Part shown: piece by piece, positions 5,625-25,751 of the stretch
Layout of the letters: the number at the start of each line of letters is the position of its first letter
How positions within the stretch are numbered: position 1 is the first letter of the stretch
From: Octopus vulgaris
Taxonomy: Eukaryota
Length of the DNA stretch: 64,000 nucleotides
Direction of reading: 5' to 3'
Assembly: GCA_951406725.2 (NCBI GenBank)
Contig: OX597833.1
Location: 2,232,001-2,296,000, forward strand
Made by a program: the position numbers and the translations under genes
The notes under the pieces: model-generated
The model's input: the letters and a program-made list of their open reading frames with translations, nothing else
Told to the model about the DNA's origin: nothing
Database searches by the model: none

Positions 5625-6313
5625 GGTGGAGAGAAAGGAGGGGGAAGAGGAGGAGGGGAGGAGGGAGGAGGGGAGGAGGAGGGGAAGAAGAAGCAGCAGC
5701 AGCAGCGGCTGCGGCAGCAGAAAGGAAGAAGCTCAAGAAAATAGCAACAGCGACAGCAGCAACATCAACCACAAGAGCAACAACAATAGAAGCAATAGGA
5801 ACAACAGAGAGGAGGGGGGCGTAGCAGAATGGTAAAGAGAGGAAGAAGAAGATGAAGATGAAGAAGAAGAAGAAGAAGAAGAAGAAGAAGAGGAGGAAGA
5901 AGAAGAAGGAGGAGAAGAAGAAGAAGAAGAAGGTGAAGAAGAAGAGTGAAGAAGAAGAAGAAAAAGAATGAGGAGGAGGAGAGGAAGAAGAAGGAGAAGA
6001 AGAAGTAAGAAGAAGAAGAAAAAGAAGAAGAGTGAAGAAGATGAAGGAGGAGAAGAAGAAGAAGAAGAAGAAGGAGGAGGAGAAGAAGAAGAAGAAGAAG
6101 AAGAAGAAGAAGAAGAAGAAGAAGAAGAAGACGAAGAAGAAGAAGAAGAAGAAGAAGAAGAGTGAAGAAGATGAAGGAGGAGAAGAAGAAGAAGAAGAAG
6201 AAGGAGGAGGAGAAGAAGAAGAAGAAGAAGAAGAAGAAGAACGAGAAGAAGAAGAAGAAGTAGAAGAAGAAGAAGAAGAAGAAGAAGAAGAAGAAGAAGA
6301 AGAAGAAGAAGAA
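5625..6313. repeat. Long polypurine (GAA/GGA)n tract
   Basis: Direct reading. Includes an internal duplication of AGTGAAGAAGATGAAGGAGGAGAAG at ~6030 and ~6160. Confidence 0.95.
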
Positions 6314-6779
6314 GACCCGTCATCAGCGTACGACAATCACCGGTTTTCGATGAAAGGAGTGGGACTTACAATATGGCTAACCCTTAGTGGTTAGCCATAT
6401 TGAGATGGCAAATATACCTCACATTGTCGTGCAGTTACTGTTTATACCTCGTTCAGAGATGTATTATTGCTTGAATACACTTTTCCAAGATCATTGACGT
6501 AAAGTTACTGGAAAAACTATATTAATATTTGCATTAGGAACTCCTTTCATCGAAAACCGGTGATTGTCGTGCGCTGATGACGGGTCAATAGCCAGAAACT
6601 GCAGTCCGTGCGTATCAATTAGGTTGACGAGGGAAGGATGACCTCCCTTTGCAAATACCGATAAGGCACAGAAAGTGTGCCTAAAGCCAGCTGGAGGAGA
6701 TGTTCTCCTGAAGCTACAAGCTACAGTAACACCCACCCTTAGTCGTTAGCCATATTGAGATGGCAAATATACCTCACAT
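6314..6779 (+). mobile_element. PLE pseudo-LTR/retrozyme-like element, ~355-nt unit with 5' inverted segment
   Basis: Direct repeat 6380-6424 = 6735-6779. Inverted repeat 6314-6360 vs 6540-6586. Snap-back hairpin 6369-6402. HHR at 6569-6611. Confidence 0.7.
6569..6611 (+). ncRNA. Type I hammerhead ribozyme motif
   Basis: GTGCG-CTGATGA-CGGGTCAATAGCCA-GAAA-CTGCAG-TC-CGTGC: canonical core, palindromic stem III ACTGCAGT, GUC triplet; stem II is imperfect. Confidence 0.75.
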
Positions 6780-7119: not shown

Positions 7120-7308
7120 TGAATCGTTAGCTCCTGCACGCATTTTTTTTCTCTCCTTGTTTCTTTTCTGTGTATCTTTCTGTTGAAGAGCGTAGACTCG
7201 AAACGTAAAAGACTTGTTTTATTTCTATTCCTGAGCGCCATACTAATACAATTGTTTGTTTGTACTCCACCTGCCTTCGTCTTTTGTTTATTTTCGTAAA
7301 CCTTCCCG

Positions 7309-7310
<2 letters not shown>
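7120..7310 (+). mobile_element. HHR-bearing short repeat, family P2
   Basis: Homologous to 44543-44722(-) and 54240-54413(+). Motif TCTTT-CTGTTGAA-GAGcgtagaCTC-GAAA-CG-TA-AAAGA at 7175-7212. TA tracts lie on both sides. Confidence 0.7.
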
Positions 7311-10747: not shown

Positions 10748-10965
10748 AAAGTTAGTCCAAAGATGAAAACACAACGTGAAAACACAACAACGCGAGGACG
10801 TGGAACAAATATAGTATTATTGGACGCTCAGGAAGGAAGGGAAGAAGGAGGGTTCAAACGTTTCGGAGCGGAGCTCTTCGTCGGAAACATAGGAGAAGGA
10901 AAGATCCTGAGAAGGGAAGACACAGGAAAAAATATCGCCAACGGTACCCACGCGGTCACATTTTA
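10748..10965 (-). mobile_element. HHR-bearing short repeat, family P1
   Basis: Homologous to 51795-51975 and 52753-52968. The minus-strand motif at 10852-10888 reads GTTT-CCGACGAA-GAGCtccGCTC-C-GAAA-CGTT. TA tracts lie on both sides. Confidence 0.75.
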
Positions 10966-25426: not shown

Positions 25427-25537
25427 TATATATATATATACAAATATTACTATTTCTAAATCTCTCTAGAGGGGACTACAGCAGCAGCACTGGATATCAA
25501 TAGTTATCGCCAAGCTAACATGGCAGTCCAGAAAAAT

Positions 25538-25738
25538 AGGACGAATGCTGTCGCTGATTAGCTCCAAGAGGCCATCGCCTTTAGCTAGCTATGTGACACG
25601 CAAACTTGTGCCCAGCTGCTGACCTCCCTTGTTGGAAGGTTGGAAGGTTGGAAGGTTGTAATGTTGGAAGGTTGGTGTGTCATATAGCTAGCTAGAGGCG
25701 ATGTCCTCTTGAAGCTAATCAACGGCAGCATTCGTCCT
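25538..25738. repeat. 62-bp inverted repeat enclosing (GTTGGAAG)n
   Basis: 25538-25599 vs 25677-25738, about 6 mismatches by eye. Confidence 0.85.
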
Positions 25739-25751
25739 TAACAGAGGACGA

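Follow-up and report, generated by a model that had tools for sequence, protein, structure and literature searches.

A likely inactive, non-autonomous hammerhead retrozyme copy in Octopus vulgaris, from a family likely copied into AT-rich sites by a Penelope-like enzyme, probably from circular unit-length RNA

Background

The stretch of Octopus vulgaris DNA analysed here (64,000 nt, hereafter the window) carries at positions 6314-6779 a hammerhead unit that is partly repeated in tandem and preceded by an inverted copy of a piece of itself. What kind of element leaves such a structure, and from which template was it copied? The original prediction saw in it the footprint of reverse transcription running more than once round a circular or tandem RNA of about 355 nt, followed by self-primed template switching. 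We conclude that the piece is very probably a genuine though damaged copy belonging to a new member of the non-LTR retrozymes, which Penelope machinery has moved. The fuller reading, in which a likely inactive, non-autonomous hammerhead retrozyme copy belongs to a family likely copied into AT-rich sites by a Penelope-like enzyme, probably from circular unit-length RNA, is given a probability of about 0.6.

Methods

Copies of the family were searched for in the 2.8-Gb genome. Four queries and three fetched regions yielded 123 loci, of which 98 were retained as distinct after containment-based duplicate removal (one short locus, L054, may have been wrongly dropped). Since the loci are top hits, the sample leans to long, window-like copies. 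Open reading frames of Penelope-like elements (PLEs) were searched with the GIY-YIG profile PF01541, and 30 of its 148 matches gave eight GIY-YIG clusters.

Structure of the window copy

The features of the insert are listed in Table 1. Each of the repeats that had been proposed was recovered: the direct repeat is 44/45 identical at an offset of 355 (E 5e-19), the inverted 47-bp segment matches its source at 46 of 47 positions (E 4e-20) and the 14-bp stem at the junction is perfect (6369-6382 with 6389-6402, loop of 6 nt). The extra sequence in this stem amounts to 11 nt only (6369-6379), its last 3 nt belonging to the main arm. The predicted snap-back at this hairpin, here on a 3-nt pairing, fits the structure, and a template switch between two cDNAs fits it equally.

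Table 1 Features of the insert and its left flank (window coordinates)
Feature	Position	Strand	Remark
(GAA)n-rich tract, left flank	5830-6313	.	upstream: neither unit remnant nor TSD partner found
Inverted arm	6314-6360	-	copy of 6540-6586: putative start site, stem I 5' strand, CUGAUGA, stem II 5' strand
Junction filler, 8 nt	6361-6368	.	absent from the original prediction
Fold-back piece, 11 nt	6369-6379	-	reverse complement of 6392-6402; joins 6380-6382 in the 14-bp stem
Main arm	6380-6779	+	400 nt long, or 1.13 times the 355-nt retrozyme unit; terminates at site A
Terminal redundancy, 45 bp, copy 1	6380-6424	+	copy 2 at 6735-6779
Penelope-type 'tail'	6425-6471	+	between the family's fixed 3' ends, A (~6424/6779) and B (~6466-6472)
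snRNA-promoter-like box at -59	6490-6496	+	family ATCAGTG; one mismatch in window copy
LINE-duplicated site (in other copies)	6546-6562	+	putative transcription start 6549
Type I hammerhead motif	6559-6619	+	predicted cut after 6606; stem II broken in window copy

The hammerhead motif was likewise found as announced, with GUC at 6604-6606, CUGAUGA at 6574-6580 and GAAA at 6595-6598, and the copy holds a single ribozyme in sense orientation. Stem I (6568-6573/6607-6612, 6 bp) is extended by a distal helix, stem II has 4 bp (6582-6585/6590-6593), a C.A mismatch occupies 10.1/11.1 and stem III consists of 2 bp with a palindromic 4-nt loop, an arrangement known from the dimer-dependent type of hammerhead (PMC4209133, available part). 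An Rfam search of the window gave no hammerhead match at E<=10, the matches being microsatellite miRNA models and a spurious MIR6217 hairpin only, and in folding the window motif does not surpass shuffled sequences (z -0.33). The assignment is drawn from the motif together with covariation in the family. Stem II carries GC in 46 and AT in 34 of 83 copies, which counts as one event, and core pair 3-8 is C-G, U-A or U-G depending on the subfamily. The main subfamily has the C.A mismatch at 10.1/11.1, which makes its ribozyme activity uncertain; younger subfamilies combine U3-A8 or U3-G8 with G10.1-C11.1, U3-A8 being a known active variant (PMC3088659, available part). Each family unit thus contains a type I hammerhead, a predicted self-cleaving motif. 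In the window copy stem II is broken by C6591G, a position at which 79 of 84 family copies have C.

Elsewhere in the window, the end of another repeat (7140-7310) contains a core resembling a hammerhead (TGAAGA...GAAAC) and continues into a TA tract, and a pattern scan found two more minimal hammerhead-like motifs on the minus strand, at 10884 and 46290.

A dispersed and tandem family

The unit is multi-copy, as had been supposed: all 40 scored loci are 90-100% identical to it, among 4,100 first-look candidates (which is not a copy number). It recurs with a period of 355 nt, dispersed and in tandem, in up to 10 units, and its longest stop-free sense stretch is 40 codons. Arms wrap head-to-tail at this period with no other sequence, the longest over 2.8 units, and none enters an ORF. 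Non-LTR retrozymes are defined by a short (150-450 nt), ORF-less unit in dispersed and tandem form, which is what the family shows, and by TSDs >4 bp with no LTR, PBS or PPT; the family conforms in its TSDs, the window copy having none. The window piece is thus a single representative of a non-LTR retrozyme that has a type I hammerhead in an ORF-less unit of 355 nt and is present in many dispersed copies. Contigs from four sequencing runs that we guessed to be RNA contain the family; such contigs cannot show circles, ends, starts or level.

A second, homologous family with a 360-nt unit (L164 437-990; L225-L249) has a U3-A8 hammerhead, a 59-nt tail and two equivalent ends. An inverted insert of this family or of a relative lies at 25455-25740 of the window.

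Several loci deserve separate mention. L121 3269-6878 (G000:C4) is a 10-unit array whose units differ by 0-1.7%; it ends at site A, has 12-nt TSD-like flanks and a U3-A8 hammerhead, and is a candidate source locus. In L123 2396-3246 (G000:C23), the hammerhead 5' half is repeated about 17 times in tandem, as 50-nt units, within an A/B-bounded insert that has a 13-nt TSD; these repeats may reflect repeated template slippage or later minisatellite growth. At L275/L276 (G000:C19), an inverted A/B insert recurs at a 1,456-bp period inside a larger tandem duplication.

Two fixed 3' ends and Penelope-type insertion

The 3' ends of the inserts fall at two sites, A (~6424 = 6779) and B (~6466-6472), separated by about 47 nt, and the 5' ends are scattered. 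Among the 98 distinct loci, the single-orientation inserts end at A in 32 cases, at B in 22 and elsewhere in 2. Copies had been expected to be circular permutations of one unit; the result lies in between, the 5' ends being free as expected and the 3' ends fixed, so that the copies are not free circular permutations.

Inverted inserts (n=42) comprise 36 AB, one AA, no BB and five with one odd end (p 3e-10), hence AB pairing in 36/37 of those with both ends at A or B. With the same restriction, the pairing recurred in 7/7 new loci, 7/8 inserts of a younger subfamily and 7/9 of the homologous 360-nt family (21/24 in total). TSDs of at least 7 nt flank 30/98 loci, compared with a rate of 2.1% when flanks were mismatched. 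In two of these loci the TSD is a simple repeat, and many flanks are TA runs where no TSD is readable. The family therefore displays the marks of PLE insertions: two 3' ends with a short tail between them, the tail at one end of inverted inserts, partial tandems, inverted 5'-truncated copies and AT-rich targets. In Penelope insertions the 'tail' is likewise present at one end only (PMC3846280, PMC8557442; available parts) and is caused by two start sites of reverse transcription (PMC11167929). Sites A and B showed no stable hairpins, folding being no better than in shuffles. For an autonomous PLE, both ends were visible in only 1/29 loci, and that one is AB.

The window copy is atypical, with no TSD, a left arm without an A or B end, and mutations in stem II and the promoter box. 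It lies between the (GAA)n tract and TA/CA repeats, and the search of these flanks found no TSD. Its inverted arm, one of the 5/42 exceptions, ends at neither site and adjoins the (GAA)n tract with a 2-nt microhomology. The missing A/B end and TSD may be due to a later loss of about 240 nt or to an aberrant join. The copy is probably a dead, damaged insert.

Search for a Penelope partner

The genome contains intact Penelope-like ORFs (RT plus GIY-YIG) with hammerheads of their own. Comparison of the unit with the PLE loci by nhmmer, blastn and tblastx found no autonomous element sharing its ends among the eight GIY-YIG clusters. L162 was considered as a partner and rejected, its unit-like piece being an independent insert, located 570 bp past the end of the PLE and absent from 39 other copies of this PLE. 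Could the unit nevertheless be the truncated end (pLTR) of an autonomous PLE, the repeat being its partial tandem? The anatomy is that of PLE insertions (PMC3846280, PMC8557442; available parts) and one unit-like piece does lie near a PLE ORF, in L162. Yet this is the separate insert just described; no RT plus GIY-YIG ORF lies between repeated parts, since arms wrap to 2.8 units without running into an ORF; the sense strand stays open for 40 codons at most; and the sole shared 5' flank is a LINE. We consider this origin very improbable and retain a non-autonomous retrozyme mobilised by Penelope machinery.

Two young Penelope-like families (L155-L160; L162, L166-L194) have RT and GIY-YIG frames of 781 aa in many near-identical copies. 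They end in TA repeats, one with a U3-A8 hammerhead and the other with a minimal hammerhead and a tail of about 28 nt.

Origin of the inverted arms

The 43 inverted junctions comprise 22 overlaps, 17 fillers and 4 blunt joins. Self-primed template switching, put forward for the window copy, does not describe the family, where the norm is a second primed cDNA from the other fixed site; the window arm belongs to the exceptions. In its general form, self-priming would mean that one cDNA folds back on itself and is then trimmed at the other site, with no second primed cDNA. Such a process has been proposed for PLEs (PMC3846280, available part) and would agree with the hairpin of the window copy, with hairpins of at least 10 bp at 9/43 junctions and with the 17/43 junctions at which the ends of the two arms lie no more than 30 nt apart on the unit (8.9 expected, p 0.002). 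But it leaves 26/43 junctions out of phase and gives no reason for the second end to lie always at the other site or, in L021, to go past A and stop at B; some arms, too, come from different subfamilies. Self-priming as the general source of the inverted arms is thus quite unlikely, and two cDNAs, each primed at its own site, are preferred.

Circular or tandem template

Reverse transcription through the ribozyme site and over more than one unit is supported, as 93/170 arms cross the cut and the family's arms wrap at a period of 355. Of 146 5' ends, 5 lie within 5 nt of the cut, about the uniform expectation. The lack of a pile-up at the cut, together with the arms that cross it, excludes a cleaved linear monomer as template. 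This pattern would fit a circular or an uncut tandem template, and the sequence cannot separate the two. Subfamily alleles are shared between the arms of one insert in 309/348 comparisons (211 expected) and between direct passes in 373/425 (261 expected). Chimeric inserts, with repeated parts from different subfamily haplotypes, were found in 4/26 direct and 5/27 inverted cases; more than one template is thus sometimes used, which a single circle cannot give. Also speaking against the circle, within-insert and between-insert divergence differ little in young families (2.4% vs 3.3% in one, 5.3% vs 5.2% in another); private variants are too few for their sharing between passes to serve as a test of the circle.

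The same element, with the same Penelope machinery, might be copied from an uncut linear tandem transcript of a few master arrays, or from monomers joined by template jumps, with no circle. A homogeneous 10-unit array such as that on C4 could supply linear tandem RNA, a 2.8-unit copy is present on C8, and copies of the young dispersed subfamily are 97-99% like the array over 111 nt. The chimeric direct passes, the weak or mismatched ribozyme stems and the in vitro work on the Anolis Penelope protein, which used uncut RNA and did not require ribozyme cleavage (PMC11167929), point the same way. Against it, covariation of the ribozyme core among subfamilies looks like the result of selection, long arrays are rare (more than 3 units in 1/40 scored loci), the nested variants among the nearly identical units of the C4 array suggest local expansion, and linear copying would presumably shorten the sources every generation. 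We regard an uncut tandem template as rather unlikely. A circle is favoured by about 2:1, given the core that looks selected, the 84/142 arms that extend upstream of the putative start, the presence of a promoter box with two cuts in only 4/98 copies, and the mussel retrozymes of 350-390 nt, which were shown to be circles (PMC7229834, available part).

A promoter-like box and a targeting LINE

The U1, U2, U4 and U5 genes of the genome share ATCAGT at -55 to -61; their common upstream motifs at L373-L416 are AATTAA near -90 and ATCAGTG near -58, and the -58 box is absent from the U6 upstream regions seen. The retrozyme unit carries the same ATCAGTG box. As the box was first noticed by eye, its evaluation with a model of 11 promoters is partly post hoc. 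For the family majority, the best of 710 positions was -59 relative to the LINE site (3/300 shuffles reach the score), and for the 360-nt family it was the homologous place; the box was not top in the window unit and weak in the array unit (66/300 shuffles). The score of the unit (10.3) is below those of real promoters (16-33 for 10/11).

The LINE in question (L340 894-6214, 5.3 kb, L1-group) has zf-CCHC, APE, RT and zf-RVT domains and interrupts unit copies, duplicating 6546/9-6562 of the unit. All of its 30 5' ends are preceded by the target motif, 20 as judged by BLAST to the window unit, and its 30 3' ends are followed by the site and hammerhead core (18), U2 base +1 (5), the site and another LINE (3) or other sequence (4). 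A perfect box was present in 29/30 LINE targets vs 62/88 other copies (p 0.002; copies are related and age is not controlled). We infer that transcription may start at 6549 from an internal snRNA-type promoter.

At L340, L341 and L280-L339, the LINE occupies unit 6546-6562 and U2 base +1 with 14-18-bp duplications, and tandem LINE-in-LINE insertions occur at the same site. Its nearest named relative is from Argonauta, and the searches gave no named Tx1 match. In the open-access literature (Repbase and supplements excluded), we found no report of a LINE targeting a retrozyme, nor of an octopus retrozyme.

Proposed mechanism

Rare source copies with an snRNA-type box and two hammerheads would be transcribed from 6549, and self-cleavage of the transcript would release a monomer, the ends of which would be ligated to give a circle. 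Both target strands would be nicked by a Penelope RT/GIY-YIG protein acting as a dimer, with cDNA synthesis primed once at site A and once at B; each cDNA would run a variable distance round the template. An inverted insert would arise when the 3' ends of both cDNAs are joined through microhomology, in many cases where the sequence is self-complementary and in some after short switches of template; a single arm would arise when one cDNA is joined directly to the target. In the window copy, an A-started cDNA may have covered 1.13 units, undergone the 11-nt fold-back or template switch and been joined to a second arm lacking its outer part. The circle, the promoter and the Penelope dimer are the inferred steps of this scheme.

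More tentatively, and with doubts outweighing our confidence, one may see here the complete cycle of a small RNA parasite: an internal snRNA-type promoter, a hammerhead-made circle as the sole means by which this promoter, lying upstream of the start, is inherited, rolling reverse transcription by a Penelope dimer with one cDNA per fixed site in every insertion, and a LINE that lands at the start as it does at U2.

The case for mobilisation of animal retrozymes by Penelope has hitherto been built on co-occurrence and on kinship between sequences; in this family, it is the insertion marks that show it. The near-strict rule of one A and one B end is a constraint testable in the existing in vitro Penelope system, and with the 355-nt unit as a small substrate one could ask if the enzyme rolls round a circle. 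The box and the LINE landing behind it provide a handle on retrozyme transcription and on site choice by target-specific LINEs.

Comparison with known systems

The closest counterparts are the metazoan non-LTR retrozymes (PMC7229834, available part; preprint 10.64898/2026.07.22.740005). They share with the 355-nt family an ORF-less unit of the 350-390-nt class in a mollusc, a type I hammerhead, tandem forms, TSDs >4 bp, the presence of PLEs in the genome and a proposed mobilisation by them; Li et al. derived vertebrate retrozymes from PLE ends by kinship (2026, same preprint). In contrast to them, the octopus family consists mostly of dispersed inserts of 0.3-1.8 units and not of arrays, its main subfamily has C.A at 10.1/11.1, and its circle and cleavage are predicted. 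For two-site 3' ends and A/B-paired inverted arms, we met no description in the available parts of the sources on metazoan retrozymes.

Insertions of endonuclease-bearing PLEs (PMC3846280 and PMC8557442, available parts; PMC11167929) resemble those of the family in the partial tandem, the inverted truncated copy, the tail at one end, TSDs of 7-16 bp, AT-rich or microsatellite targets and palindromic junctions. The family differs in having no ORF, a tail of about 47 nt (59 in the sister family) instead of 30-40, and a repeat unit that is the whole element. Newt satellite 2 (Coats 1994, as cited in the available part of PMC2220036) is also a hammerhead repeat with an internal snRNA-type promoter, but from a different phylum, the octopus promoter being deduced from sequence only.

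The LINE finds its parallel in the Tx1 clade, with Tx1 in Tx1D, Keno in U2, and Tx1-Mar (PMC4494074, available part). Like these, it is of the L1-group and targets U2 genes as well as a single site within another repeat; it differs from them in that this repeat is a retrozyme, entered at the putative start site, and in that the U2 insertions lie at base +1.
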